64,000 nt of DNA from a virus (IMGVR_UViG_3300033074_001909:32001-96000); one strand, 5' to 3'; numbered from the stretch's first letter, positions 35,947 through 62,843 are shown. Translations and numbers: made by a program. Notes: generated from the letters alone by a model not told the origin.

Positions 35947-38900
35947 ATGAGCATGACCACCACGCAACCAGGCGGGCAGCGGATCGGCGGACAGACCTAC
36001 ATGCCCGGGCAGATGCTGCCCGAACGCTATCGCCGCGTGCTGGAGCCGTCCGACCGGCCCCGCGATCCCGCCGTCCGTGATCCGGATCTGGCTCCCAACT
36101 TAGGCCGCCATACCGTCCCGCACATCATCACCTTCCAGGGGCTGGTCACCTCCCTAGCCCGGGCCTATCGCAATCCAGACGAGGCCTTCCGACACAGCGT
36201 CGAAAACGCCCACATGATGCTGACGGACCCGACAGTGAGCGGGCCCTTGCACGCGCGGCAGATGATGACGGCGCTGCTCCAGTGGTCGGTGGAAAGCGAG
36301 GACGACAAAGATTCACAGCTCAAAGAAGCGGCCAGCCAACTCCAGAAAGTCCTGGAACGGACGCCGCGGTTCGCTGAACTGCGCCGGTGGCTGCTGGAAG
36401 CTATCTGGTATGGTCGCGCGGCCAGCCAGCACGCGATCGGATTCCACCGCGATCGCTTCGGCGTGCGACGCAGGGTGATCAAGAAATGGCTGCCGATCTC
36501 TGGCGACAAGCTTCTCTTCCGCTACGACGACGGGAGCGGGGAGTTCGACCCGGATCAGATTGGCGTGCGGGTCAGCCCGGGACTCGGCCGCGAGGATATC
36601 ATCGCCGGGCGGCGCAAACTCGAGGCCACAACCGACGGCATGGGCTACTTCCTGGAGCCCTGGGAGCGTCGGCACTGGGCGGTCCACAAGCACATGATCC
36701 GCGACGGGGAATTCGAGGATCCACTCAGCGCAGGGCAGGTGCATGGCGTCGGCCTGCGGCACTTTCTCTATTGGGTCTGGTATCAGAAGCAGGAGGCTAT
36801 GGCGCAGCTCGCCGAGGTGCTCGACCGTACTGGCGCGGGGATCACCATCTACTATTACCCCGTCGGGAATCAGGAAGCGAAAACCCAGGTGGAAAAGGTG
36901 GCCCGCGAGCAGGCGCACACCAACGTGCTGGTGATGCCGTTCGACCCGGCCAGCACAGGCGGCGACCCGTATTCGATTCAACAAATCCCGCCCAACGTAG
37001 CCGGCCTGCAGGCCCTCCAGGACATCGTGGACGGTTATTTCGGCGACATGATCACGCGGGCCATTCTGGGTCAGACGCTGTCCAGCAAACCCTCCGCAGC
37101 GGGCATGAATACGGGCGTCTCGGATCTTCAGAAAGACTCCCTGTTCCATATCGTGCGATACGACGCGGTCAATCTCCAGGAAACCATCACGCGGGAGATC
37201 CTGTTGCCGCTGCGGGACTTCAACCTACCGAAGTTCCGCAACGTGGATTTCTTCTTCAAAATCTCGACCAAAGTCAGCGCGCCGCAGGAAGAACTGGCCG
37301 CCATTTATCAGGCCTGGCAGATGGGCACCAAAATCCGCGTCCAGGATCTCTTCCAGAAGCTCGACATGGCCATGCCGGACAAAGACGACAAGGTCGTGTT
37401 TAACCCGCAGATTGTGTCAGCCATTCAGCAGGTCGAGAGCGCCCCGATGGGTGGTCTCGCCCCGCCCGGTGGCGCCGGGCCTCAGCCTCCCGGCGCCACC
37501 CCATTTCCACCCGGTGCTGCGGAAGGCACCCCTACAAGTGAGGGCGGGGGCCAAAATGAACCCCCGCCCATAGATAGAGGGGGTGCCAGCGGCCAACCGG
37601 AGCAACTGGATAAGGCCGAAAGCCCCGAGCAGGAACGCCGGAAGTTGTTTGGCCCGATCCTGTACGGTAAGCGCGAGGAGTATCTGGAGCGGATCAGGGA
37701 AGCGGTCGAGAACACCGAGCCCAACCCCACCGAGGCCCAGCGCGAGGCCGGCAATTATCGCAAGGGCGTGGTGCATTGGCGGGGTTTAGAAGTGGTGATC
37801 GAGACGCCCAAGGGTCAGCGGCGGCGCCCGGAATGGCCAGCTCTGCGGGCGCATTACGGCTACATCCGCCGGCATTACCACACGGGCGAGCAACGGCTAG
37901 TCACCAGCGAGCCGTGCGCCGACGGCGACCATCTGGATATCTTCTTGGGGCCACAGCCCGAAAGCGACATCGTGTTCGTGATCGACCAAGTGACGGCCGA
38001 CGGAAAGTTCGACGAGCACAAGTGTATCCTGGGCACGACCAACAAGCGGGACGCCCGGGCGCTGTACCTGTCGAACTATGCGGACGGGTGGAAGTGCGGT
38101 CCGATCCGGGGCATGACGATCGAGACGTTCAAGCACTGGCTCGAGCACGGAGACCTGACGAAGCCGGTGGCGCGCCAGAAACTCAGGTACGCGCGGCAAT
38201 TGTCGCTGTTTGACGATACGTTCTCGCTGGTGCGCAAGCCGAGATCACTCTTTGACGAAGGATCGCATCCCCGGGCAAAAGAGCATGTGGAGATCCAGGG
38301 CAAGGAATACGAAGGCGGGCAATGGATCCCGAAAGACGCGGCGGTGGAAGCCACGCCAGCGGCCCAAGAGAAAATCGAGGTAGTGGACAAGTCCACGGGC
38401 GAAACCGAACCACTTGAGCAAACGCTGAAACCTGGGGATAATGCCACCGCATCGCCACCGAGTCCCGAGGACGACTCCCATGACCAACCACGATCCGACG
38501 CAGAATTCGCACCTGGAGAGCCAGATTCCACCGGAGGAGATGGAGATCGAGGACGACCTGACGACGGAGAATCTGGCGGCGCAGGCGATTTGGGAGCAAA
38601 TCCAGTTGGACCGTCAGAAGAACGGATCGTCACCTCACGCCAACAGCACACGCGCCCAGCGGATCGATCCCTCGTTCCAGAGCGACTTCGACAACATCTA
38701 GACGACCACCAGCAGGAAGGCGTCGCCAAGGCGATTGCCTCTCTTCGGGATGTTGGTGGCTTCCTTAACTCCGACGGGACTGGCGTCGGTAAGGCGCAGC
38801 CGCTCGACGAACCGATTTTGACTCCCACCGGATGGAAGCGGATGGGCGATCTGCAAATCGGCGATGAAGTCATTTCAGCCGACGGATTTCCCACCAAAAT

Positions 38901-41900
38901 CAGTGGCGTCTATCCGCAAGGGCACCTGGAAGTCTATCGCGTCACATTCAGCGATGGATCGTGGACCGAATGCTGTGCAGAGCATTTATGGCAAACCCAC
39001 ACATGGTCTGATCGCCGGAATTTATCTCGCGGTTTGCGTCGCCAGGGCAATGTCCGCTCTCTACGTGAAATTGCGAGTAGTTTGGTAGCTAACGGAGGTC
39101 AATCCAACCATTCAATTCCCATGACAGCCCCCGTCGCATTTCAGCCGCGACAAATCTTGCTTGACCCGTATGTTTTGGGCGTGCTGTTGGGTGACGGAGG
39201 AATGTCCCGACAAGCATCGTTGACAGTAACCAGCGTTGACCAGGAAATTCTAGATAGCGTAGGGCATACCTTGCCTACTGGAGTGCGATTGCGACGCATT
39301 GGAAATAGTCCTAGCTACTCGATCACCACGGATCGTCGCGCAACGAAGTCAGGCAATCCAATGGTGACGGAATTACGCCGTTTGGGACTTCATGGACCAG
39401 GAAAAACATCGGATACAAAATTCATCCCGGAAGACTACAAATTCAATTCCGTTGACGTTCGATTGTCCGTCTTGCAGGGACTAATGGATACAGACGGGAC
39501 AATTGATAAGCGTGGCACAAGTTGCGTTTACACGACAACTTCACGGAAATTGGCTGATGACATTGTGTTTCTTGTGCAGTCGTTGGGGGGAACCGCAAGA
39601 ATCCAAAGCAAGCAACCAACGTATTGTTACAACGGTGATAAACGAGACGGCAAGCAAGCGTACAACGTCACCTTGTGTCTTCCTCCTGAATTCAAGCCAT
39701 TCCGGTTGTCAAGGAAGTCAGGACGAGTAGTTCCTAAGTCTAAGTACGCACCTAGGCGATACATCAAGACGGTGGAGCAAATCGGCAGTAAACCTTGTCA
39801 GTGCATTGCAGTTGAAAATAAGTCGCATTTGTATCTGACACGCGGATTCATTGTCACGCACAATACCCGGCAGCTTCTCGCCACCGCGCAGCACTATCTA
39901 GATCAGGGTAAGAAGGTCATTGTCATCGCGCCTAAGGGCGTGACCAAAGCCGACTGGAAGAAAAAGACCGTCACCGGTTCCTGGCAGAATGACAGCCAGG
40001 CCATGGGTGTGCCGATCCACGTGACGCGGGACGAGATCGACCCCAAGGCGGTCAATATCTCGAGCTACGAGAATCTCGCGAAGCTCAAACGGCAGGTCGA
40101 CGACAACACGATCGTGATGTTCGACGAGGCGCACTCGCTGAAGAATCGCGATTCCGCCCGCTCCAAGCACGGCGTGGAAATGGCCAATACCGCGGCGGCG
40201 GTACTCTTTGCCACGGCCACTCCCGTCGACAAGGTCGAGCACCTGCACTACCTGGACCGAGCCGGTGCCTTTGGCGGGCGATATTACGGCCAGACCTACG
40301 AGCAATTGGGACTGGAGCAAGTCGAGCAGAGCATTGGCGGCGGCCAGACGGTCAAGAAGTGGCAGATTCGTCCTGGCGTCAAGGCATCCGAGGTCATGCG
40401 TCGCCTGTCGGGGCTATTCACGCGATTGACGGCCGATGGCCGGATGGTCAAGCGTGAAATCAGCATGAAGGACGTGCCGGTATCGGTACGGCAGGTGAAA
40501 CTGCCTCCCGAGGCCCACGAAGTCCTGGATCGCATTGAGGAGGAACTGACTGGCACCTCGGCCAATGAGGGCCTGGAACGAGCTCGCATCCTGATGCACC
40601 AGCGGCGACAGCAGGAACCGTATAAAGTCGCCCCCGCAGTCGACGAAGCGCTGCAGGCGCTCGACGCGGGCCGGCAGGTGGTGATTTTCGCGTCACGGGT
40701 CAATGAATCGCAGGTTGGCGGAGAGGATGACGACGACGAAAACGCCATCAAGTCCGAAGGAACCATGAAACTCCTGCGGGAAGAGCTCGAGCGGCGTGGC
40801 ATCAAGCCGGCCGACATCGCGGAGATTCACGGCGGGGTCTCCAAGACGAAGATTCCGAAAGAAATGGACCGCTTCCAAGCTGGTCAGGCTCGCGTCGTGA
40901 TCGCCACGGTGGAGAGTGGCGGCACGGGCATTAACCTGGACGACACGCGAGGAGACCGGCCGCGGACGCTGATCATGATGACGGCGCCATTTTCGGCGGT
41001 GGAAAACGTCCAGGCGGCTGGCCGAGTGTGGCGGCTCAAGACGAAGAGCATTCCCGAGATCAAGTATCTGTTCGGGGATACGGAAGTAGACGATTGGAAT
41101 TCGGCGCTGATCAGCAAGAAGATGCGGACGCTGGGCGCGTCGGTAAGCGGCCAGATTGGCAAACTCGACGTGAACAATCTGAACGAGTCGGACGCGATCG
41201 ATTTCGAGTCCGAAGAGCCGTACGAGTGGCAATATCCCGGGGAGGGTGAACCGCCCTCGGCGTCGTTCACTAAACTGGATAGCGGCGAGTGGGGAATGCG
41301 AGTGGATGGCCGGGTGCGACCGGGCGAAACGGTCGAGATCGCGAAGCGGGACGGATCGAAAACGCGGCGGGTAGTCGGGAAGATCGTCAAGGCGGGCGCC
41401 GGATTCACGATCGCGACGTTGAGCGATGCGGCGCCAGCCCGCGAGCAATTGCCGCCGCCTCCACCACCGCCGCCGTCGCCGCCTCCCCCCAAAGCGCCCA
41501 CGGCGAAGCCCAGTCATCCGTTCGAGGCACTGGCGGCGTGGTCGCAGCCGAAAAAGGTGAACACGGCGCAAGGGCCACGGATGGTGCGCAGCGCGCGCCC
41601 GACGGACAAATTCTGGAAAGAGTGGGGCAAGGACAAGGAGCGATTGAAGCGTCAGGGGATCAGCGTCTCGAAGTACCAAGGAGAATGGCAGATTTCCTGG
41701 TGGCAGGAGGCACCTGATCGCAACGCGAAACGCTACGCCAAGGACATCCTGCCCGGCGGACTCGCCGACGACGCGCCACCGGTGGATGCCGCAGCCTTAG
41801 CCCGCGGCATCGCCATCGAGATGGAGCACACAGACGATCCGGCGATCGCCAAGGAAATCGCGGCCGACCATCTGGCGGAATTCCCGGACTACTACGACGC

Positions 41901-42390
41901 CTTGGAACAAATGGAAGCGTCGCTCCGGTCGCGTGCGTCGAAACTGGGAGATCGCCTGCGCTACGCCAAGGACTTAGCAGACCTGTCGGCCGAACCGCTC
42001 ACCTACGCCTGCGCCTGCCGGCAGCGGTACGCGAAGGGTGACGAGTCGAGTCACGATCACGAACTGGGGCATGTAAGCGACCTGGAATTCGGGCAGGTGA
42101 GCGAGACGCCGGCATGGCGTGAGGCGTGGCAGCAAGAACTCGCCAGCGGCGAACTGAACGAGGAATCCAGCGAGAATCCAGCCGAGGGGCTGGCCGAGTA
42201 TGTGGCGCTGGTGCTGCAGTCCCCGAAGCAGGCTCGCGACGAGTACCCGGTTTGCTGGGAATCGCTCGAGATGGCCGGCATGATCGAAGACGTGGCAAGC
42301 GACGGTCCAGCCCGTTATGCTTACGACGAAAGCCAGCACCCTCGTGACGATGATGGCATGGTTCAAGAATACTCCAAATTAACAGGTTGA
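35947..42390 (+). CDS. portal (DUF935/Mu gp29-like) fused to polyvalent cargo: PPase-like domain, SF2/strawberry-notch-like helicase (with intein), DUF5661-like domain
   Basis: LLEAIWYG, GVGL..LYW, ITRAILGQTLS (portal); NYRKG..IETPKG..HYGYI..DGDHLDIFLGP..FDEHK; DGTGVGK/T, FDEAH, GGTGINL, QAAGRVWR; GIAIEMEHTDDP..AKEIAADHL.E.PDYY. Confidence 0.85.
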   Translation: MSMTTTQPGGQRIGGQTYMPGQMLPERYRRVLEPSDRPRDPAVRDPDLAPNLGRHTVPHIITFQGLVTSLARAYRNPDEAFRHSVENAHMMLTDPTVSGPLHARQMMTALLQWSVESEDDKDSQLKEAASQLQKVLERTPRFAELRRWLLEAIWYGRAASQHAIGFHRDRFGVRRRVIKKWLPISGDKLLFRYDDGSGEFDPDQIGVRVSPGLGREDIIAGRRKLEATTDGMGYFLEPWERRHWAVHKHMIRDGEFEDPLSAGQVHGVGLRHFLYWVWYQKQEAMAQLAEVLDRTGAGITIYYYPVGNQEAKTQVEKVAREQAHTNVLVMPFDPASTGGDPYSIQQIPPNVAGLQALQDIVDGYFGDMITRAILGQTLSSKPSAAGMNTGVSDLQKDSLFHIVRYDAVNLQETITREILLPLRDFNLPKFRNVDFFFKISTKVSAPQEELAAIYQAWQMGTKIRVQDLFQKLDMAMPDKDDKVVFNPQIVSAIQQVESAPMGGLAPPGGAGPQPPGATPFPPGAAEGTPTSEGGGQNEPPPIDRGGASGQPEQLDKAESPEQERRKLFGPILYGKREEYLERIREAVENTEPNPTEAQREAGNYRKGVVHWRGLEVVIETPKGQRRRPEWPALRAHYGYIRRHYHTGEQRLVTSEPCADGDHLDIFLGPQPESDIVFVIDQVTADGKFDEHKCILGTTNKRDARALYLSNYADGWKCGPIRGMTIETFKHWLEHGDLTKPVARQKLRYARQLSLFDDTFSLVRKPRSLFDEGSHPRAKEHVEIQGKEYEGGQWIPKDAAVEATPAAQEKIEVVDKSTGETEPLEQTLKPGDNATASPPSPEDDSHDQPRSDAEFAPGEPDSTGGDGDRGRPDDGESGGAGDLGANPVGPSEERIVTSRQQHTRPADRSLVPERLRQHLDDHQQEGVAKAIASLRDVGGFLNSDGTGVGKAQPLDEPILTPTGWKRMGDLQIGDEVISADGFPTKISGVYPQGHLEVYRVTFSDGSWTECCAEHLWQTHTWSDRRNLSRGLRRQGNVRSLREIASSLVANGGQSNHSIPMTAPVAFQPRQILLDPYVLGVLLGDGGMSRQASLTVTSVDQEILDSVGHTLPTGVRLRRIGNSPSYSITTDRRATKSGNPMVTELRRLGLHGPGKTSDTKFIPEDYKFNSVDVRLSVLQGLMDTDGTIDKRGTSCVYTTTSRKLADDIVFLVQSLGGTARIQSKQPTYCYNGDKRDGKQAYNVTLCLPPEFKPFRLSRKSGRVVPKSKYAPRRYIKTVEQIGSKPCQCIAVENKSHLYLTRGFIVTHNTRQLLATAQHYLDQGKKVIVIAPKGVTKADWKKKTVTGSWQNDSQAMGVPIHVTRDEIDPKAVNISSYENLAKLKRQVDDNTIVMFDEAHSLKNRDSARSKHGVEMANTAAAVLFATATPVDKVEHLHYLDRAGAFGGRYYGQTYEQLGLEQVEQSIGGGQTVKKWQIRPGVKASEVMRRLSGLFTRLTADGRMVKREISMKDVPVSVRQVKLPPEAHEVLDRIEEELTGTSANEGLERARILMHQRRQQEPYKVAPAVDEALQALDAGRQVVIFASRVNESQVGGEDDDDENAIKSEGTMKLLREELERRGIKPADIAEIHGGVSKTKIPKEMDRFQAGQARVVIATVESGGTGINLDDTRGDRPRTLIMMTAPFSAVENVQAAGRVWRLKTKSIPEIKYLFGDTEVDDWNSALISKKMRTLGASVSGQIGKLDVNNLNESDAIDFESEEPYEWQYPGEGEPPSASFTKLDSGEWGMRVDGRVRPGETVEIAKRDGSKTRRVVGKIVKAGAGFTIATLSDAAPAREQLPPPPPPPPSPPPPKAPTAKPSHPFEALAAWSQPKKVNTAQGPRMVRSARPTDKFWKEWGKDKERLKRQGISVSKYQGEWQISWWQEAPDRNAKRYAKDILPGGLADDAPPVDAAALARGIAIEMEHTDDPAIAKEIAADHLAEFPDYYDALEQMEASLRSRASKLGDRLRYAKDLADLSAEPLTYACACRQRYAKGDESSHDHELGHVSDLEFGQVSETPAWREAWQQELASGELNEESSENPAEGLAEYVALVLQSPKQARDEYPVCWESLEMAGMIEDVASDGPARYAYDESQHPRDDDGMVQEYSKLTG
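38794..39864 (+). mobile_element. class 3 (Ala-1, WCT) LAGLIDADG intein in the helicase Walker A
   Basis: GK|AQPLDEPILTPTGW; HLW, CQCI, VTHN|T; LGVLLGDG and LQGLMDTDG; lower GC. Confidence 0.92.
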
Positions 42391-51166: not shown

Positions 51167-51306
51167 AATGAATCGAATGATCCACAATGACGGCACGCTT
51201 GAAGTTGCGGCGAAAAGTGCTGTCGGTGATCGGTCGCTAGAAGTCTCGGCGCCCGTTGGCAATATTGCCCGTTCGGGTAGGATGGCCAGCACGGAGGAAC
51301 CGGACC

Positions 51307-54300
51307 ATGGCGACAGGATTCGCTGATCGGTATGCGGCGGAATTTGAAGAGGACAAGCATCCTCGCGACGAAGACGGCCAGTTCACGTTGAAAGTCTCGA
51401 AGATCCACGGCCCCAAGGGGGAAAAGTTCGAGAATCTGGGCGGCAAGCAGCAAGACCTGTTTGCTTTCCGTGGCGAAAAGGGGCAGATGAACCTCTTTTC
51501 CGATGCTGGCGTACCGGATGAATTGCTGCCGAAGCACATCCGCAAGGGCAAGCCGGACACCTACGCCAAGGACGAAGATCCACCCGACTCAGGCCCGCAG
51601 TGGATGACCCTGGGCGGCGGCGCGCGGGCCCTGGTCGCCGAGGACGGCACGATCCTGCAAGGCTGCGAAGGCGTCAAAGGCTACGACCTCGACGAACTGG
51701 ACGAGACCCGAGACGAGCGGGCCGCCAAGCAAGAGCAGGCCGAGGACGCGGGCTGGACGAGCGCCAAAAGCGACCGGGCCCGCGAGACATGGGAAGCCTT
51801 CAAGAACAGCGACCCGACGCACCCACACTTCATCGGCTTGGTCCGGCACGGTGGTAAGTTCCACGCCTTCGACGAGAGCGCTGGGAAACTGCAGGAGCAG
51901 CTCGGCATCGGCGATGGGCAGACGGCCGAGTTCGACGAGGACAAATTGCCGCATCACATGGAGCGGCTGATTGAGAATGGGCATCGGGTAGCCGTGATCG
52001 ACCGGGCCGAGGACGGGACGCCGGATTTGGACAGCGACGCGGACCCCGAGGCCCAGCAGGCGGTGGCAGAGGCCCACGAGGATGTGGCGGAGCAACAGGA
52101 GACCAAACCGGCTGCGGCCGGCTTCGGCATTGAGCCCGTCCATCCCGAGCGACTGAAATTGACCCAAGACGGCCGCGAGATCGGTTACATGAACTTGCGC
52201 GTCATGGGGGACCGGGGCTACATCGACGATACGTCGATTCACGCCGCATCGCGCGGGCAAGGCGTCATGCGGCAGCTATGGCCGCAGATCGAGCAGCACT
52301 TCCGTGATCAGGGAGCCACGTCCATTCGCGCGGACGTGGTCGATCCAGCGGTAGGGGAAAAGGTCTGGGGACCGCTGGGCTTCCAGAAGGAAGGCATGTC
52401 GGGGCCGGTGGAGGTGTATCGCAAGCACCTGGACAGTCCGGCAGCCGATTCGGAACAGGCGACCGACAAGCCACCTAGCACCAAGCGTGGTCGACTGCCA
52501 AGCACGGACGACCCTGCGCATCACGCCGTGGCGCAGCGGTTCGGTATCCCTCCGGAAACCGTCAAGGAGATCCTCGAGACGCATCCGGATGAATTATCCC
52601 GCCGCGATAACTACTTCCCGCCGAACAGTCAGCGAGATGAAGTGGTCGGCCCGACACTGGACTACGAGCCCCATCCTCTGGGATCGGCCAAAATCGATTC
52701 GAGTCAGCACAAGGCCGGCGAGACCGACAATGCCTACGTGGATTTCCTGACGGAGTTCGACCCGCAGCAACTGAAACTCAGTGAGCCTGAAGACGGCATG
52801 AGCAAGAGCCAGTCCGTAGCTGCCTATGCGGACTGGATTAAGGCGGGCATGGAACCGCCGCCTATCAGTGTGTTCGACAGTGCGAACGGAAATGGGAATC
52901 TCGTGTCGACAAACCGCCGTCGCGTGCTGGCTGCGCAGCAAGCTGGCGCCGACAAAATCGTAGGCTGGCACGGGAAGAATAATCCCGAGACGGGATTGCC
53001 GCTCAAGCTGGGCGATATCAAGCGAGCTTATGAAGAAGCCAAGGGGCAGGGCGCGGCAGCATCGGAATCCGACCAGCAGGAGCAGACGCCGGCCGACACG
53101 GCCGGCGAAGCGGACGACTGGAACGCCGCCACCCAGTCCCCGGCCGAGGCCACCGATGACCAATTGGCCCGGGCCATCGAATTCGCCAGCCACCTGCACG
53201 GCCACCATCAGCGTAACGCCCAGAGCGGCCAGATCACTCCCGAGCAACTCACCTCCCTGCACGACATGATCGACGGCCACGTGGCCACGATGCAGGCCGA
53301 ACTGGAAAGGAGAAAGCATGCACAAGACCAGCCCGCAGACCGAGGAAACGCAGCCGCCAGTCCAGGCGGAACCGATGACGCATCAGCAACTGGCGCAGAA
53401 ACTCGACCGACAAGCGGAACTGCTGCAGCAGATCCTGGCCCGACTGGATCACTTGGAACGCGGCACCATGATGCGGGCCAGCGCATCGCCCAGGCCCCCG
53501 GCCCCGTCCGCAGCCTCTTAGAGTCGCTCCATCGACTGCGGGACACCCGCAAGACGGGGCAAGTCGAGACGAAGGAACTGGGGCACGAGTACGCCCGGGA
53601 AATGTACGATCACTTGAAGTCCCTCCGGCACGCCGGGGACGACTTTGGCGAGGTGCATGACCTGTCGCAGGAACTGGGCCACGGGGCGATCGGGTACGCG
53701 TCCCCCGCCGGCAATGTGGCGATGGTCCCGCCGAAATTCAAGGGACAGGACTGGCAAGTGCGGTACACGCTGCCGCATGAGTCGCAGCAGGCCCCGGCTG
53801 CAACTCCCGCCGACGCGCCCAGTGAGCCAGCCGGCCAGGGCGACGAACTCGAACTGCTCGACGACGTGATGGAAGGCGACGCCTACGAAGGCGATCTCCC
53901 CGCCAGCGACGCCGGAGGCGGCTTCCCGTGGGAAGATGCCGGGCAGGATGAACCGCCGACCGCCCCGTCGCAGCAGCCAGCGTACTCCGACGCATGGCGC
54001 GACCTGCACGCGCAGCATCAGGACTTGGTCTACCGCACCATCCCGCATCGGGAGCAGCAGTATCGGCAGGCAGTATCCCAGGCCCAACGCGACCAACAGC
54101 GGTTTGCGGCGAAGGCCGCCGAGTACCAGTCACAGGCGGATCAACTCGAGAGCGTCACGCCCCGCGATCCGGCTCACGCCGTGCGCATGAAGTCGGACCG
54201 GCCTTACGCTGAGGCCCGCCGGCGGATCGACAAGCTTCGCAAGATGAGCGCCGACTTGGATCGCAAGGCCGACGAAGCGAAACTCCATCCCCGGATTGAG

Positions 54301-56376
54301 TTCGCGCGGCAGCAACTTGCCGCCTCTCAGTCGGCCGCCGAGCAGTTAGCGCAGCAGAAGGCCGAGGCCGGTGGCGCCTTGGCGCCCGAAGTCGACCCGG
54401 ACACGGGAAAATCGATCAGCCGTCGCGCCTACCTGGCCAAGCAGCGCGCGGCCGGCCGGGCCGTCCAGCAGGGGAAGGGGGTCAGTCCCCGCACGCCGCT
54501 GGGGCGCGCCATCATTGCGGCGGTGGGCGATGACCCGGTCGAACAGCAGCATTTCGGTGAAGTCCTGAAAGAGATCCACGCCAACGACATCGACGCCGTG
54601 CGGAACCGGAACGACGCCATCAAGGAAACGCTGGCGAATTTTGGGTTCATGGGCCGGGATGCCGGAAAATTCCTGCAGGCGATCCGCAAGTACGAAGATG
54701 CGGACCAGTTCCTGCGCAAGAGTCCGCTGGGTAACAAATTCGACCAGATGACAGAGTACGCCCTGACGCACTTTGGCGAAGTATTGGACGTGGCGCACAC
54801 TCGCACTCACGACGACCCGGAAAGCGCGTTCTTCGAGACGCTTCAGCGAGGCCTGAAACGCGTGCCCGAGCCGCACGATGACGAGGTGGTGTCGAAAGCC
54901 CTGGAGTATTACCTGTCCAGTCTGGAGTCATCGCGCGCCCACGAAGAGCGATTGAAAACCGATCCCGCGTACCGAGAAGAAATGGCCGCGATTGAGCGAG
55001 GCGATTACACATTCTCGCGGCAGGGCGCTAAGATCCGGTACGCCCGCTGGGCGCGGCAGAGACTCAGCCGGTGGTATCGGTATGCCCGTCAGTTGTCGCT
55101 GTTTGATGATCCGGGCGGACTGCAGTCCGCAACCAAGCCGAAGCCGAAAGGCAAGCAGAAAGGCCTGTTCGACGAAGACGACCACCCACGGGCCACGGAA
55201 CACGTCGAGATCAAGGGGAAATCCTACGAGGGCGGTCAGTGGATTCCCAAGGACGAAGCGGCGCAGGCCAGCCCCGCAGCGGCGGAGAAAATTGAAGTCG
55301 TCGACCAGGACACGGGTCAAGCCCAGCCGCTGGACGAAGTGGAAGAACAGCCGTCGGAATCGCCCGGCGCAGAGCCGGCCTCGGCAGATCCAGAACCTTT
55401 CGAGTTCAAGACAGCCGCCCAAGCGGCGCAGGAGGGAATGTCTTTCGCATCATGGCAGCAGCCGATTACAGACGCCTATCGTCATGAGCGGATCGACGAG
55501 GATCATCCAGCCTGGCAAGCAGTCTTAAACGCCCCCAATGTGTCGGACTACAACGACGCCAGGCACGTGTTTGGCAAGCATGTCCTCGCGCATGCCGGCC
55601 AGCAGGAGGTCTTTGGCACGGTCACGGCGCTATCCGACGACCTGCAATCCGGCACGATCACGATGCCCGACGGCAGAGAGGCCAAGCACTTCATTTCCAA
55701 CATGAACGACCTGGGGCCGTTCCTGCAGGATCGCTTGAAGCGGTACATTGCTACGAAGGGGCTCGACGAAACGCGCGAGGCGCTGGCCCGTAGCGAAGCA
55801 GCCAAGTATTTGGCGGGTGTGATGGCCCAAGAGGCATTCCAGAAGCAGACCAACATCGGCGAGGTGATCAAGGCGCACGGGTTCGGCCTGAAGGAAGGTA
55901 TGGCGATCCGGAGCATGGTCGCGGATGAGTTCATGAAGTTGCAAGAGGCAGCCAAGCCCCAAGCGAGCGACGCGCGCAAGCGAGCTCAAGAGAAGCGGCG
56001 GCAAACCGACGAAGCGGCGGAGAAGAAGCCAGACGACACCGCGACATCCGCCGGCAACTACGAGGGCATCCTGCAGGAATCCGCCCCCTACGAAGAGTAC
56101 GGCGACAACTACAATCGGAACATCGCAGCCTCAGCTAATCGGCTGCGCGACGCGATGGAGCGAGGGCACGATGCCAAGATGCTGGATCACTTGGCATCCG
56201 AACTGCGCACCCGGATCGACGTGCATGGGAAGAAGCCACAAGGTGGCGGTGAGGCCGAACGAGGCGACAAGCCAGACGCAGCAGGAGCAGCAGCCGAAGT
56301 CCAGGATCCAGAGCAGCCAGCCGCCGAGGCCGTCGCCAGCGATCAAGAATCCAAGATGGTGATCATCGACAAGTAG
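51307..56376 (+). CDS. large polyvalent protein (MutS-I-like, GNAT and ParB-like domains, HPR motifs)
   Basis: GGAGG SD; FEEDKHPRDEDGQF; LVRHGGKFHAFDESA..LIENGHRVAV; SRGQGVMRQL..WGPLGF; PPPISV..NRRRVLAA. Confidence 0.8.
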   Translation: MATGFADRYAAEFEEDKHPRDEDGQFTLKVSKIHGPKGEKFENLGGKQQDLFAFRGEKGQMNLFSDAGVPDELLPKHIRKGKPDTYAKDEDPPDSGPQWMTLGGGARALVAEDGTILQGCEGVKGYDLDELDETRDERAAKQEQAEDAGWTSAKSDRARETWEAFKNSDPTHPHFIGLVRHGGKFHAFDESAGKLQEQLGIGDGQTAEFDEDKLPHHMERLIENGHRVAVIDRAEDGTPDLDSDADPEAQQAVAEAHEDVAEQQETKPAAAGFGIEPVHPERLKLTQDGREIGYMNLRVMGDRGYIDDTSIHAASRGQGVMRQLWPQIEQHFRDQGATSIRADVVDPAVGEKVWGPLGFQKEGMSGPVEVYRKHLDSPAADSEQATDKPPSTKRGRLPSTDDPAHHAVAQRFGIPPETVKEILETHPDELSRRDNYFPPNSQRDEVVGPTLDYEPHPLGSAKIDSSQHKAGETDNAYVDFLTEFDPQQLKLSEPEDGMSKSQSVAAYADWIKAGMEPPPISVFDSANGNGNLVSTNRRRVLAAQQAGADKIVGWHGKNNPETGLPLKLGDIKRAYEEAKGQGAAASESDQQEQTPADTAGEADDWNAATQSPAEATDDQLARAIEFASHLHGHHQRNAQSGQITPEQLTSLHDMIDGHVATMQAELERRKHAQDQPADRGNAAASPGGTDDASATGAETRPTSGTAAADPGPTGSLGTRHHDAGQRIAQAPGPVRSLLESLHRLRDTRKTGQVETKELGHEYAREMYDHLKSLRHAGDDFGEVHDLSQELGHGAIGYASPAGNVAMVPPKFKGQDWQVRYTLPHESQQAPAATPADAPSEPAGQGDELELLDDVMEGDAYEGDLPASDAGGGFPWEDAGQDEPPTAPSQQPAYSDAWRDLHAQHQDLVYRTIPHREQQYRQAVSQAQRDQQRFAAKAAEYQSQADQLESVTPRDPAHAVRMKSDRPYAEARRRIDKLRKMSADLDRKADEAKLHPRIEFARQQLAASQSAAEQLAQQKAEAGGALAPEVDPDTGKSISRRAYLAKQRAAGRAVQQGKGVSPRTPLGRAIIAAVGDDPVEQQHFGEVLKEIHANDIDAVRNRNDAIKETLANFGFMGRDAGKFLQAIRKYEDADQFLRKSPLGNKFDQMTEYALTHFGEVLDVAHTRTHDDPESAFFETLQRGLKRVPEPHDDEVVSKALEYYLSSLESSRAHEERLKTDPAYREEMAAIERGDYTFSRQGAKIRYARWARQRLSRWYRYARQLSLFDDPGGLQSATKPKPKGKQKGLFDEDDHPRATEHVEIKGKSYEGGQWIPKDEAAQASPAAAEKIEVVDQDTGQAQPLDEVEEQPSESPGAEPASADPEPFEFKTAAQAAQEGMSFASWQQPITDAYRHERIDEDHPAWQAVLNAPNVSDYNDARHVFGKHVLAHAGQQEVFGTVTALSDDLQSGTITMPDGREAKHFISNMNDLGPFLQDRLKRYIATKGLDETREALARSEAAKYLAGVMAQEAFQKQTNIGEVIKAHGFGLKEGMAIRSMVADEFMKLQEAAKPQASDARKRAQEKRRQTDEAAEKKPDDTATSAGNYEGILQESAPYEEYGDNYNRNIAASANRLRDAMERGHDAKMLDHLASELRTRIDVHGKKPQGGGEAERGDKPDAAGAAAEVQDPEQPAAEAVASDQESKMVIIDK

Positions 56377-56861: not shown

Positions 56862-57611
56862 ATGACCGCCCCGCAATTATTTGCCAGCTACTGGCCCGAG
56901 GGACCGCATCGCTGCTACTACTGCGGCGGGCGATGCGACGAGACGCATCGAGCTGCTGATCTGGTCCAGTCGTCGTTTACCGCACGTGATACCGTGGCTG
57001 GCGGTGAGTACGTGTGCCCTGGCTGCATCGCTGCGATGGACGAGAGGGCCACGATTACGCTGGCCGACGGCGAAGTGCGCGAAGGCCAGCGGGTCCGCTG
57101 CTACTCCTGGGTCATCACTGCCGAAGCGGCGATCGCTGCCACCAAAGCTCATCGCGCGTGGCTGACAGGAGCGTGCCTGTCGCCTCCAGAACCGCCCTAC
57201 GTCATCTCGATCAGCGACAGCGGGCAACGGCACCTGCTGTATCGTGCCGTCGTATGCCATTCTCGCGAGATCATTACCGCCACTCTGGAGGGCGAGCGGG
57301 TAACATTCACACCCTATGAGCTTGACGAGCGGTTGACGCTGTGTCGCAAACTGATCGCGGCAACCGGCAAGCCGGCTCTGTCCGAAGCACCGACTGCACG
57401 ATTCGGCATGTCGGTAGTCTCGCATCACGACGACGAATCACTGATCTCCACGTGGCTGGAATGTCGCGAGCAACCGCTGTCTCGCCTGGCGGCGTGGCTC
57501 TCGCCTCCCAAGGAGGAATGCTTACTTGAGTTCCCAGCACCAGCAGCTCCCGCCCCCACTGCCTGTGCTCGACACCGAGCAGTTCAGGCAACGTTTAGCT
57601 GGCTTGATTGA
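56862..57611 (+). CDS. csf1: type IV CRISPR Csf1 (Cas8-like)
   Basis: CYYCG, VCPGC Zn finger; PPEPPYVISISDSGQRHLLYRAVV. Confidence 0.8.
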   Translation: MTAPQLFASYWPEGPHRCYYCGGRCDETHRAADLVQSSFTARDTVAGGEYVCPGCIAAMDERATITLADGEVREGQRVRCYSWVITAEAAIAATKAHRAWLTGACLSPPEPPYVISISDSGQRHLLYRAVVCHSREIITATLEGERVTFTPYELDERLTLCRKLIAATGKPALSEAPTARFGMSVVSHHDDESLISTWLECREQPLSRLAAWLSPPKEECLLEFPAPAAPAPTACARHRAVQATFSWLD

Positions 57612-57999
57612 CCAGCGATCCGAAGTGGACGCCGAAGATTTCGCCAGCGTGGCGGCGTGCGCTATCCATTTTGTCTCGTCGCTGCCGATTGTGTTCGGCG
57701 AGCAGCTCGAGCGCACCACACTGTGGGATAAGATCGGCGCCGCCCTGGATACCGCTTACGCCAAGACCGCCGCCGATGATTGCGACTTCTTTATCAGTCG
57801 CGTGCTGGAGTCGATCCTGGCTTCTCCGGCGGCCGTCGCTCGCTGTGAGGCCATCGGCCAGGTGATAACGTGGCTCTCCGCTGCGCCGACTGAGATGCGG
57901 CACGCGTGGCTGCAGTACATCGCCACGCACCGCTATGCCGTGCTCGTACGCGCTCGCATGGCCTGGGAGCAGCAGAAGGAGGCTCGCGCCAATGCCTGA
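57526..57999 (+). CDS. type IV-B small subunit (Cas11-like), alpha-helical
   Basis: position between csf1 and csf2; helical composition. Confidence 0.65.
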   Translation: MSSQHQQLPPPLPVLDTEQFRQRLAGLIDQRSEVDAEDFASVAACAIHFVSSLPIVFGEQLERTTLWDKIGAALDTAYAKTAADDCDFFISRVLESILASPAAVARCEAIGQVITWLSAAPTEMRHAWLQYIATHRYAVLVRARMAWEQQKEARANA

Positions 58000-58876
58000 G
58001 ACCTATACGATCCTCTGCGTGAGTGAAGCCGCCTCGCCAATCACGCACATGAGCGGCAGCGCCGGCAATGAGGCGATTATCGCTCGTGCGCCCGTGATGA
58101 CGGATCGCGGGAAACTGTGGATACCATACCTCTCAGGTAATGCCCTGCGCCACCGTTGCGTGCGAGATCCAGGCGTGGATTTCCTTTTGGATCTTTACGA
58201 ACTGCGAGGCAAACTTACACTGCCGCAGCTCAATTTCCTGCGGCACGGCGGAAATCTCACGGAGTCCACCGCACACGAGAACACGGCCCGCATCGCCGAG
58301 ATGAAACGCACTTGGCCGCTACTGCGATTGCTGGGTGGCTCGTTGCCAAACCAGATCCTGGCCGGCAGCCTGCAAGTCTGGCGTGGTGAACTGGTGTGCG
58401 AGGAAAACCGCCAATACCTGGCCACGCTCGGAGACTGGCTGCCCACGCGGCGACTCAAGGCTGCCGAGGAGTTCATCGGGAACTACCAGTACACGCGCGG
58501 CGATGCCGCGAAGTCCGGCGAGGCTCAGGCGGAGGAGGATCGCGAGAGCAATCTGATGATCTTCGCTGGCCAGCAGGTCAATCGTGGCTCGCTGTTTGTG
58601 CATGGCTTCGTGGCGCCTCACGCGTCGCGCGTCGAACTGGGCGCGCTGCTGCTGTCGCTCCGACTCTGGCAGTCCCGCGGCGGGACGATCGGCGGACAAG
58701 CGGCGCGCGGCCACGGCCGGCTGGCGATGTCCCTGGTCGGTGCGATCGACCAGTCGTGTGTGGACGAGTACGTCGAGTACGCGATCAGCGTGCGAGATGC
58801 GGCGATCGCGTGGCTTGAGGACTGCTTTGCGAAGCGAGCCGACAAGCCAGCGAAGACAAAGAAGGTGAAGGCATGA
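57992..58876 (+). CDS. csf2: type IV Csf2 (Cas7-family RAMP)
   Basis: SPITH, IPYLSGNALRH, L.HGG.L, PLLRLLGG, G-loop IGGQAARGHG. Confidence 0.88.
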   Translation: MPETYTILCVSEAASPITHMSGSAGNEAIIARAPVMTDRGKLWIPYLSGNALRHRCVRDPGVDFLLDLYELRGKLTLPQLNFLRHGGNLTESTAHENTARIAEMKRTWPLLRLLGGSLPNQILAGSLQVWRGELVCEENRQYLATLGDWLPTRRLKAAEEFIGNYQYTRGDAAKSGEAQAEEDRESNLMIFAGQQVNRGSLFVHGFVAPHASRVELGALLLSLRLWQSRGGTIGGQAARGHGRLAMSLVGAIDQSCVDEYVEYAISVRDAAIAWLEDCFAKRADKPAKTKKVKA

Positions 58877-59538
58877 GCCTGCTCGTGATCGCGCACCTAT
58901 CGTCGCCGCTGGCCGGTGATGCGCCGATGCTGGACGGACTGCTCGAGTTCGAGATGTCGCAGAGACTCGGTGCGGCGTATAAGGTCCGCCGCGATCAGCC
59001 TGCACCGCCCGCCGGAGCGATCCATATTCCGATGCTGCGGCGCGGTATCGGCGGTTGGAGTGTTCCGCTCTGCTCGTCACCGATCTACACCGCCGAGAGT
59101 GATCGGCATGAGTACATCGGCAAGCGGCTGGCGGTCGAGCACGCCAGTGATTTACGCGAGGATGCACGGCTGGTCGTGGCGATGGGCAACGCGACCTACA
59201 AGTCATATCGCCTACCGCTGCGAGTGAGGAATGTGTCACGCGTGGCGTGGTTCTGCGAGGGGCATCGATCGCCGATTTTGAAGCTGCTCAAATCGGTACA
59301 CGCGATCGGCCGGAAGCGGTCAGATGGATACGGTCGCGTGGCGCGATGGACTGGCGAGAACGTGGATGGCAATCATCACTGGTACGGCGAGAGCGAGCAC
59401 GGCCCGGTGCTCATGCGACCGCTGCCGTTTGGCGACTGGCTGCCGCGCAGCCTGCTCGGCGCGAAGCGAGATTTCGGTGCGGTCGTCGCGCCGTACTGGC
59501 ATCCTGATCGCTATGCGGAGATTGTGGTGCCATGCTGA
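58873..59538 (+). CDS. csf3: type IV Csf3 (Cas5-family RAMP)
   Basis: LSSPL..LDGLL, YKSYRLPL, IGRKRSDGYGRV, MRPLP, PYWH. Confidence 0.85.
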   Translation: MSLLVIAHLSSPLAGDAPMLDGLLEFEMSQRLGAAYKVRRDQPAPPAGAIHIPMLRRGIGGWSVPLCSSPIYTAESDRHEYIGKRLAVEHASDLREDARLVVAMGNATYKSYRLPLRVRNVSRVAWFCEGHRSPILKLLKSVHAIGRKRSDGYGRVARWTGENVDGNHHWYGESEHGPVLMRPLPFGDWLPRSLLGAKRDFGAVVAPYWHPDRYAEIVVPC

Positions 59539-60263
59539 TTCGCACTGCTCGCCACACGGCCGCAGACCTGGCATTGTGGGAGTCGCTCGAGGACGCCGAC
59601 ATTCTGAGGCAGGACGTGGCCGCCTATCGCGCACGGTACGCTGAGGCGCTGCACGCGATCGCCGCGTTTACATCCGCAGGCGAGTGCTACGCCGGCATCA
59701 GTTGGGGGAAGGACTCTACCGTGCTGGCTCATCTGATCCAGTGCGTCGCGCCTGACACGCCACTAGCCTGGACGCGAGTAGAACCGATCGCCAATCCAGA
59801 CTGTGTGCTCGTGCGAGATGCGTTCCTGCGATTGCATCCGCACGCGAACTATCACGAGATCACGGAGTGGTGTGAGTGGCGCGATGGAGAGTGGCACGCC
59901 ACTGGCACGCTCGAAAGCGGCATCGCCAAGTGCCGAGAACGATGGGGAGAGCGGACGATACTCGGTATTCGAGCCGAGGAGAGCACCCAGCGTGGGTTCC
60001 GCATTTGGCGCCACGGACTATCGACGGATCGGTCGTGTGATCCACTGGGACGCTGGCGCATCGAGGACGTGATGACCTGCCTGGCAATCGAGGGACTGCC
60101 GGTGCATCCGGCTTACGCCATGCTGGGAGGCGGGCGCTGGCCGCGAGAGCAACTGCGGGTCTCGTCGCTCGGCGGTCGTCGCGGCGATGGCCTCGGGCGA
60201 GCAGAGTGGGAGCGCGAGTATTACGGCGATGTGGTGCGACGGCTGGCCATGACGGACACCTGA
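59532..60263 (+). CDS. CysH/PAPS-reductase-family protein associated with type IV-B
   Basis: PP-loop SWGKDS, LGIRAEES, PLGRW..DV. Confidence 0.85.
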   Translation: MLIRTARHTAADLALWESLEDADILRQDVAAYRARYAEALHAIAAFTSAGECYAGISWGKDSTVLAHLIQCVAPDTPLAWTRVEPIANPDCVLVRDAFLRLHPHANYHEITEWCEWRDGEWHATGTLESGIAKCRERWGERTILGIRAEESTQRGFRIWRHGLSTDRSCDPLGRWRIEDVMTCLAIEGLPVHPAYAMLGGGRWPREQLRVSSLGGRRGDGLGRAEWEREYYGDVVRRLAMTDT

Positions 60264-60268
60264 ACGTA

Positions 60269-60493
60269 TTAATTGCGGCGATACTGCGTGGATTCGCGCG
60301 ACGCTTCCACCAGGTCGATCAGGTGATTGACCAGTTCGGTGAGCATCTCATTCCGCCGCAAATCCGCAATCCGCTCCATGCGTTTATCGGCCGGCAAGGC
60401 CAGCAGCCCGTCCAGGCAGGACTGGCAGAGCGGAATCGGCGAGGCCGACGGAGCCAGTTCACACAGACACGATTGGCAGAGGTGACTTAGCAT
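60269..60493 (-). CDS. small Zn-finger protein
   Basis: two CQSC motifs. Confidence 0.55.
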   Translation of the reverse strand: MLSHLCQSCLCELAPSASPIPLCQSCLDGLLALPADKRMERIADLRRNEMLTELVNHLIDLVEASRESTQYRRN

Positions 60494-60513
60494 GGATTTG
60501 CGTCGGCGGTGTC

Positions 60514-60610
60514 TTGACGAAATTTCGCCGTTATTCTAAATAACATACTCGCGACCAGAAATTGCGGTACTTCGAACAGAAGCCCGTCGGGAAACCGGCG
60601 GGCTTTTTTT
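60514..60610 (+). promoter_or_regulatory. promoter-leader-terminator element, copy 2
   Basis: TTGACGAAATTTCGCCGTT...AAGCCCGTCGG-GAAA-CCGGCGGGCTTTTTTT. Confidence 0.75.
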
Positions 60611-60632
60611 GTTTCTTGAGGGAGTATTGGTT

Positions 60633-60908
60633 ATGGCTGACCCGGTAGTTCGAGACGGATTCGAAATCTCCGGCTCCACCGCGCGGCGCAACCAGCAATC
60701 CAACGCTCCCGTCGGATTTGAATATTACGACACGACCGTCCGCAAGCTGTTCGTGATGGGCCCGCGCGGCTGGGAGCACGTCGGAACCGAAGAGGAGCAG
60801 TCCAGTAGTTCCTCCTCGTCGTCGTCCTCGTCGTCGCTGTCCAGCCAATCCAGTAGCTCCCTCAGTTCGCAGAGTTCTTCTTCGAGTAGCTCGAGTTCCC
60901 AAAGCTAA
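60633..60908 (+). CDS. small protein with poly-Ser tail, paralog 1
   Basis: VVRDGFEISGSTARRN..YYDT..VMGP.GWE then EEEQ-poly-Ser. Confidence 0.7.
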   Translation: MADPVVRDGFEISGSTARRNQQSNAPVGFEYYDTTVRKLFVMGPRGWEHVGTEEEQSSSSSSSSSSSSLSSQSSSSLSSQSSSSSSSSSQS

Positions 60909-60922
60909 GGCACGGTTGACCC

Positions 60923-61123
60923 ATGGTAGTTCGAGACGGATTCGAAATCTCCGGCTCCACCGCGCGGCGCAACCTAATGTCCAACGCGCCGGTCGGACAC
61001 CGGTATTACGACACCGACCACCGGCACCTGTACGTGATGGGACCAGCCGGTTGGGAACGCGTCGCCGAGGAAGAGCAGTCGAGTTCCAGCAGTTCCAGTT
61101 CGTCCAGCAGTTCGTCGAGTTGA
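60923..61123 (+). CDS. small protein with poly-Ser tail, paralog 2
   Basis: tandem duplicate of 60633..60908. Confidence 0.7.
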   Translation: MVVRDGFEISGSTARRNLMSNAPVGHRYYDTDHRHLYVMGPAGWERVAEEEQSSSSSSSSSSSSSS

Positions 61124-61133
61124 TTTTAGCTGC

Positions 61134-62843
61134 ATGAACACCGTCACGCCAATGCGACCGAAGCGCACGCGGGGGAACCCCACCGAGGACGGCGAGTTCG
61201 TGGTCTTCGAGCACGTGCCGATCTTCGATGAGCACGAGGGTGATGACGGCGTGGTGTACGACGAACGGCTGCTGCGGGCCATTGCCGACAACTGCAACCG
61301 CCGCATCCAGACCACCGGCGACTGGTGCCCGGCCGTGGTAGCGCACACCCGCGACCGCGAGGACAAGGCCACCGTCGATGACGATCCCCAGGTGATCGGG
61401 CTGTGCGGTCCGTTCTACGTGGCGGACTTCACGAATGGCGATGGACGGCAGGTTAAAGCGATTCACTGCCACTTTTGGATCTTCCCCGAGGAAGAGAAGA
61501 CCTTCCTGCGAAACCCGCGCCGCAGCGTGGAAATCTGGCCCGAGGAGCGTCCGGAAGACCGGTATTTCGATCCCATCGCCTTGCTGGGCGCGGAAACGCC
61601 CAAGCGCGACCTGGGCATGATCTACAGCCGCCGGCGACCGGGCCGCGAGCCATCTCGGCGGTGCATGGCGGGGCCGCTGCGATACGCGAAGCGTTCGACG
61701 AAGCCGCTGCGGTACGAGGAAGGCGGCGGGGTCGCCAGCACCCCGGGCGGGAACAATACGTTCATTCCGGGGGCCGTCGAGATCCCCAAGAAGAAGAAAC
61801 CACTTCAGCACGCGAAAGGATCATCGCCCATGGCGCTATCACCGGATGATATCAGCCAAATCGTCGAAGCCCTGCGGCCGACGATTGAATCGATTGTCGA
61901 TGAGCGGATGGGGCCGGCGGACCTGGGCAATGACGCCGATCTTGGCGCAGCCCCCGACTTGGGTGGCGCTCCGGACATGGGTGGCGCGGATCTGGGTGGT
62001 GCCCCGGGCGGCGACATGGACGACGTGCCGAACTACGACGACATGGACGAGGAGTCGAAGCTCTACAGCCGCGGACTGGGCCGCAAATACATGCGGTACA
62101 AGAAGGACGAGGGCTGGGATGAGGACGGCGAGTCGTCGTTCATGGCCACGCTCGACGACGACGACAAGGGGAAACTCGGGTCGTACATGAAGTACATGTG
62201 CGACGACGATGACTCGAAGAAGCGGTATGCCGAGCGGTATGCCAAGAGCCCCATCGGCGGCACGGACCTCACCGAGTCGGGCCCGATGGCCACCGGCGAA
62301 ATGAAAGACGGCGAGCCCACGCGTTACGGGAAGGGGATGCCCATGAATTACCAGAAGTTGCGTCAGGAACGCGACGAAGCCGCGGCCAAGTATTCCAAAC
62401 TGAACCGCGAGCACCAGGAACTGAAGCAGAAGTACGCCAAGCAGGAAGGCGAACTGGCGACCGTCCGCCAGAAGGAACGCTATTCCCGCCGGCTGTCGCA
62501 ACTCAAGGATCTCGAGCCGGAGTACGCGTTCGACGCCGAAGAGGAAATGTCCCTCACCGAGGATTTTTCCGACGACCAGTTCACGCGGCACCTGGATGTG
62601 ATCAAGACGCGGTACGCCAAGGTTAGCGGCCAGACGATGCCCACCGAGCGGGAGCGGCCCTTACCATCGCCCGCCCAGGAAAAGCAGCAGCGGTACGCCA
62701 AGCAGGCCACGGATCTGGTGCAGCGCTACCGCAAGGCAGGCCGCAGCATTGATTACGGCAAGCTGCTGGATCACCTGATCGAGAATCACGGCCAGGTGAA
62801 CGAAGACAAACTGTTCCAGTCCAACGGCCACGCGGCCGCCTGA
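61134..62843 (+). CDS. prohead protease-scaffold fusion (Mu I-like)
   Basis: VPIFDEH, IADNCN, VVAHT, PRRSVEI, IALLGAETP; acidic linker and coiled coil; upstream of the capsid genes. Confidence 0.78.
   Translation: MNTVTPMRPKRTRGNPTEDGEFVVFEHVPIFDEHEGDDGVVYDERLLRAIADNCNRRIQTTGDWCPAVVAHTRDREDKATVDDDPQVIGLCGPFYVADFTNGDGRQVKAIHCHFWIFPEEEKTFLRNPRRSVEIWPEERPEDRYFDPIALLGAETPKRDLGMIYSRRRPGREPSRRCMAGPLRYAKRSTKPLRYEEGGGVASTPGGNNTFIPGAVEIPKKKKPLQHAKGSSPMALSPDDISQIVEALRPTIESIVDERMGPADLGNDADLGAAPDLGGAPDMGGADLGGAPGGDMDDVPNYDDMDEESKLYSRGLGRKYMRYKKDEGWDEDGESSFMATLDDDDKGKLGSYMKYMCDDDDSKKRYAERYAKSPIGGTDLTESGPMATGEMKDGEPTRYGKGMPMNYQKLRQERDEAAAKYSKLNREHQELKQKYAKQEGELATVRQKERYSRRLSQLKDLEPEYAFDAEEEMSLTEDFSDDQFTRHLDVIKTRYAKVSGQTMPTERERPLPSPAQEKQQRYAKQATDLVQRYRKAGRSIDYGKLLDHLIENHGQVNEDKLFQSNGHAAA

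Follow-up and report, generated by a model that had tools for sequence, protein, structure and literature searches.

Motif-bearing genes of the head module

The window analyzed here (IMGVR_UViG_3300033074_001909:32001-96000, 64,000 nucleotides) covers positions 32001-96000 within one 106,332-bp contig of an uncultured phage and carries the head module. Short tyrosine motifs of the type Y-[ASG]-[KR] recur in three open reading frames (ORFs) of this module, P0001, P0002 and P0003, all on the plus strand. The distribution, conservation and structural context of these motifs, and their possible recognition by the prohead protease of the phage, are the subject of this report.

35935..42390, plus strand: gene of the portal-cargo fusion P0001 (2151 amino acids; assigned by Pfam and PHROGs)
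51256..56376, plus strand: polyvalent cargo gene P0002 (1706 amino acids; likely start at Met18, the database copy having 1689 amino acids)
61134..62843, plus strand: protease-scaffold gene P0003 (569 amino acids; assigned by fold matches and an AlphaFold2 (AF2) model)

Three sets of related sequences were used for comparison. The P0003 family comprises 85 metagenomic homologs; 30 of these entered the alignment and the AF2 model, and 84 were covered by a tripeptide scan. The locus set consists of 47 IMG/VR loci around homologs, of which ~40 are non-redundant after near-duplicates were dropped. The portal set holds more than 100 homologous Mu-type portal fusions.

Enrichment of the tyrosine motif

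A sequence-only reading of the window had listed tetrapeptides carrying the motif and interpreted them as maturation-protease sites that release cargo enzymes inside the head. Every tetrapeptide on that list is present at its place in P0001, P0002 or P0003. The set of P0003 consists of IYSR, RYAK (four copies), LYSR, RYGK, KYSK, KYAK, RYSR and DYGK.

Y[ASG][KR] occurs 11 times in P0003, compared with 0.8 expected by shuffling. None of 2000 shuffles reaches 11, and the difference from the rest of the proteome is highly significant (Fisher 2e-13). P0001 contains seven copies (1.7 expected). The narrower motif RYA[KR] is found four times each in P0003 and P0001 and twice in P0002 (Fisher 1e-7, 2e-5 and 3e-3 over the three ORFs) and is absent from the remaining 28,997 amino acids (~120 ORFs). 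The enrichment predicted for the three ORFs is thus strong in P0003 and P0001, and RYA[KR] is confined to all three. For the broad motif in P0002 the prediction holds weakly, with four copies against 1.3 expected, a number reached by 71 of 2000 shuffles.

The distribution is replicated in the relatives. Across the ~40 loci, [RK]Y[AS][KR] was counted 54 times in the protease-scaffold (2.1 by shuffling, 25-fold) and 26 times in upstream ORFs of at least 700 amino acids (3.6 expected, 7-fold). The other upstream ORFs have four copies (3.9 expected) and the downstream structural ORFs have six (2.7 expected), values close to background. The observation extends beyond this genome to a large uncultured group of phages.

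Protease domain of P0003

P0003 has a domain with the prohead-protease fold at its N-terminus (approximately residues 20–147), followed by disordered linkers and a helical scaffold region. In the AF2 model, residues 20–135 are confident and residues 147–233, 261–296 and 372–402 are disordered; helices follow, one of them with 57 residues. An exhaustive comparison of residues 6–147 of the model with the Protein Data Bank (PDB) by VIA-align gave T4 gp21 as the top match (5jbl_A, Z 7.1, root-mean-square deviation 3.7, 122 aligned residues). The protease of varicella-zoster virus (VZV) was the sole other match (Z 5.8, 90 aligned residues), both Z values being moderate. In the ESM Atlas, the domain lies near the Mu-like_Pro, Phage_GPO and Peptidase_S78 clusters (TM-scores of 0.58–0.65). 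H71, T72 and the segment PRRS131VE are invariant across the 30 homologs. The candidate catalytic residues His71 and Ser131 are 60 residues apart. P0003 has no Pfam hit (residues 1–169 even at E ≤ 5) and no PHROG hit. A Foldseek search of the PDB with the whole model returned nothing at E ≤ 0.001, and a profile search of PDB sequences with alignment A1 returned coiled-coil noise only.

Two genes follow P0003 in an order, protease-scaffold, 145-residue ORF, capsid candidate, that is also found in the 47 related loci.

62938-63375: ORF of 145 amino acids directly downstream of P0003, a possible decoration or cement protein
63447-64487, extending beyond the window end: capsid candidate of 346 amino acids, after the 145-residue ORF

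By its fold, its invariant His and Ser and its position upstream of the capsid gene, P0003 is a real protease-scaffold. If it is a member of the assemblin/HK97-fold prohead serine proteases, it represents a divergent branch without a family profile.

Tyrosine sites of the scaffold

The 11 sites of P0003 begin immediately behind the protease domain and continue throughout the scaffold region.

61620..61691, plus strand: first two sites, IYSR (Y164) and RYAK (Y184), located immediately past the protease domain in the disordered linker
62061..62762, plus strand: nine further Y[ASG][KR] sites (Y311, Y369, Y398, Y420, Y434, Y450, Y494, Y521 and Y541)

The first site is at least 90% conserved as [LMI]IYS[KR] in the 30 homologs, and the predicted local distance difference test (pLDDT) score is below 50 over residues 147–233. 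Y369 and Y494 are located at helix ends and Y398 in a disordered segment of the AF2 model, so that five of the 11 sites are disordered or at a helix end. Site positions in the scaffold are conserved, and the middle residue drifts between A, S, G, Q, N and R. Nearly all of the 85 homologs carry 4–12 copies of the motif.

In the unbiased scan of the scaffold parts of 84 homologs, YAK is the top-ranking tripeptide (179 observed, 11 expected). RYS, YSK, KYA, ERY, YSR and RYA are also over-represented, below YAK. The 1367 scaffold tyrosines have K or R at position −1 in 50%, A or S at +1 in 43% and K or R at +2 in 52% of cases.

Two further features of the linker were observed. Residues 193–212 (window 61710-61770, pLDDT ~30) contain a second conserved linear motif, in which the invariant Tyr194, as [RK]-Y-[EQS], is followed by PGG-x-NTFIP. 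N208 and T209 are nearly invariant, and among the tripeptides of the family NTF ranks second in enrichment. An internal methionine, Met233 (ATG at 61830), lies shortly ahead of the first scaffold helix, is kept in most homologs and has a Shine-Dalgarno-like GAAAGGA sequence 9 nucleotides upstream (window 61814-61832). By analogy with Mu I/Z, Met233 may be the start of a nested in-frame scaffold gene.

Motif positions in the portal-cargo fusion

P0001 and P0002 are each multi-domain proteins in head context. P0001 contains, in this order, a Mu-type portal, an InPase domain, a junction module, an intein-interrupted SNF2/Sno helicase, two small domains, DUF5661 and a zincin-like domain. Pfam recognizes Portal_Mu (residues 93–476), InPase (600–737), a LAGLIDADG intein in a SNF2/Sno-type helicase (~950–1743) and DUF5661 (1951–1994).

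37660..37671, plus strand: LYGK (Y577), behind a Pro/Gly-rich post-portal linker and 20 residues ahead of InPase
38185..38301, plus strand: junction module with RYAR (Y752), LSLFDD and the tag LFDE-x2-HPRA; RYAR lies 15 residues past InPase
41731..42036, plus strand: RYAK (Y1934), DUF5661, RYAK (Y2010) and RYAK (Y2032)
42058..42312, plus strand: zincin-like C-terminal domain (HELGH at residues 2042–2046, EGLAEY)
42313..42378, plus strand: RYAY (Y2128), the tag HPRDDDG and EYSK (Y2146, five residues before the stop); pLDDT below 50

The sites coincide with the breakpoints of homology. In a BLAST comparison of P0001 with the portal set, the starts of high-scoring segment pairs cluster at residues 580–599 and 1930–1939 and the ends at 490–510, 740–759, in the 1930s and in the 1990s; these breakpoints are motif positions. 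The DUF5661 module of four other proteins starts exactly at the equivalent of residue 1937, right after RYAK. Most InPase-bearing portal fusions have [RK]YA[KR] behind InPase, and in the close relatives it is found ~10–15 residues past this domain regardless of which domain comes next. In a model of residues 1745–2151, Y1934, Y2010, Y2032, Y2128 and Y2146 all have pLDDT values below 65 and lie between or after folded units. LYGK, by contrast to its assignment in the sequence-only reading, is part of a separate conserved motif, FGPIL[YNH]x[KR], in which relatives have N or H in place of Tyr.

The zincin-like domain (residues 303–381 of the model) is weakly matched by VIA-align to PPEP-2 (6fpc_A, Z 6.1) and anthrax lethal factor (Z 4.5–4.8). 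Homologous domains terminate many portal fusions. HExxH is kept in distant homologs; the two closest relatives have HTLGH and HLLGH, with the catalytic Glu lost, and P0177 and P0178 have no HExxH.

The LAGLIDADG/Hom_end intein splits the P-loop region of the helicase (window ~38780-39860, residues ~950–1310). The PHROG matches over this span are intein-bearing terminases and primases.

Motif positions in P0002 and other polyvalent proteins

P0002 consists of a GNAT domain, the only domain that Pfam recognizes in it, and modules common to P0210-P0214.

51328..51393, plus strand: N-terminal RYAA (Y26, or Y9 if Met18 is the start), followed by the tag HPRDEDGQF
51559..51570, plus strand: TYAK (Y103), closing the N-terminal leader module
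55036..55218, plus strand: RYAR (Y1262) and RYAR (Y1276), followed by the second copy of the LSLFDD/HPRA junction

The N-terminal RYAA-HPRD segment aligns with an internal YAK-HPRD junction in P0210, and the same N-terminal layout is present in P0188-P0195. The homologs P0211 and P0214 begin, with their residues 2–4, where residues 102–106 of P0002 align, which corresponds to TYAK. Generally, stand-alone polyvalent proteins of the phage type open with the junction module, the Tyr being one of residues 9–32. Polyvalent proteins of the conjugative type with the same InPase domain have neither the Tyr site nor the HPR tag.

The junction module and its HPR tag

Among cargo proteins, the motif has [RK]-Y-[AS] as its conserved core, and position four is occupied by K, R, A, Y, E or Q. 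Counting RYAA and RYAY as sites, as had been done from the sequence, is justified by this variability. In cargo the site is part of an ordered junction module, in which it is followed after 8–35 residues by HPR-x(2-9)-G-x-[FW]. The stretch between these two elements often contains (G)Q-x-S-L-F or W-[DE]-E.

In post-portal regions HPR was observed 78 times (12 expected). It is the most enriched tripeptide among those with many occurrences and is second in over-representation to HKC, which has 13 occurrences. Among 72 HPR..G.F tags, 48 have a Tyr site 3–40 residues upstream and two have one downstream; the value for random positions is 10%.

A junction cassette of ~100 residues is present in two copies, in P0001 (residues 746–843, 38170-38463) and in P0002 (residues 1266–1376, 55051-55383). 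The copies share 56% amino-acid and 67% nucleotide identity, with a longest exact shared DNA word of 14 nucleotides. Their sequence reads RYARQLSLFDD ... HPRA-x-EHVEI-x-GK-x-YEGGQWIPKD ... EKIEVVD. P0211 and P0212 repeat the cassette 2–3 times. In L031:40-5307, a related viral contig, a cargo ORF of 1755 residues contains five copies of another cassette (FFRS-x-P ... SRKGEIIRYAR[KE]K), one of them at residue 9.

Proposed recognition by the prohead protease

The phage's own prohead protease, which is formed by the N-terminal domain of P0003, is predicted to recognize the [RK]-Y-[AS]-([KR]) peptides as its sites; this prediction stands at about an even chance. The prohead protease is the simplest reader of the motif because the densest array of sites is on its own attached scaffold, because the best-conserved site is at the joint between protease and scaffold, and because portal-fused cargo could not exit the head uncut. 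The analysis shows the motif itself, its enrichment and conservation, its position at junctions and the fold of the protease; cleavage and the ejection of the products are inferred. In the procapsid, the protease would free itself at the conserved I-Y-S-[KR] just past its domain and would then degrade the attached scaffold at ~10 further sites. It would also cut the portal-fused and free polyvalent proteins at module junctions and strip their short N-terminal leader. Separate enzyme modules would stay in the head, each starting shortly ahead of an HPR..G.F tag. The scissile bond is possibly located after the small A/S residue, since the next residue is variable.

The proposal of maturation sites made from the sequence is supported insofar as the motif is non-random, kept in over 80 scaffold homologs and over 100 portal fusions, located at module borders and shared with a protein of the prohead-protease fold. 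It needs refinement in view of the separate nature of LYGK, a capsid candidate without a site and a second candidate peptidase, the zincin-like domain, in the portal fusion itself. Likewise, the expected placement of sites at domain boundaries applies to P0001, where they are found at homology breakpoints with low pLDDT, and to P0002, where Y26 and Y103 mark the borders of leaders; it does not apply to the six of 11 sites in P0003 (Y311, Y420, Y434, Y450, Y521 and Y541) that are inside confident helices of the AF2 model.

Besides these helical sites, several observations weigh against cleavage by the prohead protease. Y420 and K422 are invariant or nearly so while the residue between them varies, a pattern just as compatible with a structural or binding role. 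P0188, P0191, P0192, P0194, P0212 and P0001 (42367-42390) end 4–8 residues past an [RK/E]-Y-[AS] (VSKYSMQA-stop, LKYSQTGE-stop and EYSKLTG-stop are such C-termini), where a cut would achieve little. P0104, P0117, P0127 and P0148 come from phages with a homologous protease-scaffold, and their portal fusions lack the strict motif. The protease-scaffold of L031 keeps only Y-R-R and Y-Q-K despite the five IIRYAR[KE]K junctions in the cargo. Across loci, the +2 residues of scaffold and cargo do not covary significantly (rho 0.15, n=10). Anecdotally, L043, L044 and L046 have a non-basic +2 residue in their scaffold sites and the same variant in neighboring large ORFs, and P0045 has the variant Y-R-[KR]; P0067 is a further homolog with a variant motif. 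The capsid candidate contains no Y[ASG][KR], only RYAF and RYVK; capsid proteins assembled on a separate scaffold often remain uncut. No enrichment of Y[AS][KR] is present in Mu gpI, gpH, gpF and gpT, and the known processing of the Mu portal therefore cannot be mapped onto the motif. Searches of 50,697 cultured-phage records with P0003 and P0002 by tblastn gave no match, and with the portal/InPase query the InPase domain was the sole region matched. Furthermore, the homolog counts are not independent, owing to shared ancestry.

Alternative explanations

The main rival is a docking role. Scaffold copies of the motif would attach to the portal or to the inner face of the capsid, and cargo copies would recruit their proteins into the procapsid, comparable to the cargo-loading peptides of encapsulins and the capsid-targeting sequence of T4. 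In many stand-alone polyvalent proteins the motif is found 8–30 residues into the chain and in several 4–8 residues before its end, as is typical of targeting peptides, and it is always paired in one order with the HPR..G.F tag. The invariant Y420/K422 pair and the many sites in confident scaffold helices are also in line with binding. However, docking leaves unexplained why the best-conserved site is in the disordered linker behind the protease domain and why sites are at the exact homology breakpoints between swappable modules. Cargo covalently held on 12 portal subunits would, moreover, presumably be unable to exit the head uncut. Docking as the explanation is considered unlikely; the motif may serve both roles, and a combination of cutting and docking is possible.

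Alternatively, two unrelated phenomena without a common reader could coincide: a structural Y-x-K in the scaffold, serving coiled-coil or capsid contacts, and RYA[KR] in cargo as part of a linker cassette for shuffling by recombination. This would account for the duplication of the cassette in the genome, its 2–5 repeats in relatives and the reshuffling of modules exactly there, and it agrees with the uncoupling of cargo and scaffold sites in L031 and the lack of significant covariation. A longest shared word of 14 nucleotides is, however, poor for homologous recombination. That two protein classes of one head module, and no other part of the genome, share the preference for K/R-Y-A/S-K/R is unlikely to be a coincidence, and the anecdotal mirroring of scaffold variants in the large ORFs of L043, L044 and L046 points in the same direction. 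Such a coincidence is quite improbable. The junctions could also be cut by the zincin-like domain at the C-terminus of P0001 rather than by the prohead protease. With HELGH and EGLAEY, a fold like those of PPEP-2 and anthrax lethal factor and homologs at the end of many portal fusions, this domain is the kind of peptidase for which Iyer et al. predicted such processing in 2017 (PMC5512222). The fold matches are weak, though, and in the two closest relatives the catalytic Glu is missing while the RYA[KR] junctions are kept; P0210, the polyvalent partner of those relatives, has no HExxH either. The 25-fold enrichment in a scaffold fused to a serine-type protease would also be left unexplained. 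Processing by the zincin-like domain is therefore judged highly unlikely, and the prohead protease is retained as the preferred reader of the motif.

It is possible, if somewhat doubtful, that the Tyr site with HPR..G.F constitutes a "cargo cassette" grammar of general use across a large uncultured phage group. Any enzyme behind the cassette would be packaged, either fused to the portal (12 copies) or within a free polyprotein, and released by the head protease as a separate, tagged, injectable module. Such a grammar would account for the construction, shuffling and processing of polyvalent proteins. For the packaging of these proteins and their possible cutting into separate enzymes, zincin-like processing is the one published proposal found (PMC5512222). 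If the prohead protease does read the motif, the domain borders of hundreds of uncharacterized portal-type and MuF-type cargo proteins could be readable from sequence, and the motif would define a new specificity class among prohead proteases. The paired HPR..G.F tag has apparently not been described before; as a possible packaging signal, it could be used to load capsids with foreign proteins.

Comparison with known systems

T4 gp21 cuts at L/I-x-E in scaffold, portal and internal proteins, and the processing of Mu gpH is a further precedent. The prohead proteases phiKZ gp175 and SPN3US gp245 recognize A-x-E; SPN3US gp245 cuts the portal, ejection proteins and itself at this motif, and the propeptides hold multiple copies of it (PMC10052503). 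These systems resemble the one proposed here in that one head protease reads one short motif, which is repeated in the core or scaffold and at the borders of cargo or portal. They strip short N-terminal leaders from cargo, and the same is proposed here on the basis of sequence. In contrast to their x-x-Glu sites, the motif in the present phage is anchored by Tyr with basic flanks. The protease is fused to the scaffold, and the capsid candidate is apparently uncut. Furthermore, cuts are proposed between many internal modules, with the cargo located C-terminal to the portal, whereas only N-terminal propeptides are removed in T4, phiKZ and SPN3US.

In herpesviruses, assemblin is fused upstream of the scaffold, releases itself just past its domain and cuts the scaffold. 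The release site has a small P1 residue (Ala) with Tyr nearby, and there are two sites per precursor. The consensus Y-[VL]-[KQ]-A/S differs from the [RK]-Y-[AS]-[KR] described here, as does the restriction to two sites.

P0001 and P0002 conform to the polyvalent proteins described by Iyer et al. (2017). These are multi-enzyme polypeptides of the head module (portal fusion, InPase, SNF2-type helicase, zincin-like peptidase, GNAT) for which packaging and delivery along with the DNA are predicted; the authors proposed that zincin-like peptidases, or assemblin-like ones at the C-terminus, process them (PMC5512222). In a text search of that article, neither a junction motif nor an HPR tag nor DUF5661 came up. 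Nothing specific was returned by literature searches on Tyr-anchored motifs of prohead proteases or on the processing of portal cargo. The principle is known, but the literature searched contains neither the Tyr motif nor this branch of proteases nor the HPR tag paired with the motif.

In P2 gpO, the protease (residues 1–141, catalytic Ser107) precedes a linker and a scaffold at the C-terminus; the substrates of gpO are gpO itself, the capsid protein and presumably the portal (PMC7552001). P0003 has the same layout of protease, linker and scaffold, and its first Tyr site is located where gpO-type fusions cut themselves (PMC7552001). The candidate internal start at Met233 resembles the nested in-frame scaffold gene of Mu (gpI/gpZ) and KS10. 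Unlike P2 gpO and Mu gpI, P0003 has no Pfam-level match, is twice as long and contains long disordered acidic and Pro-rich inserts.

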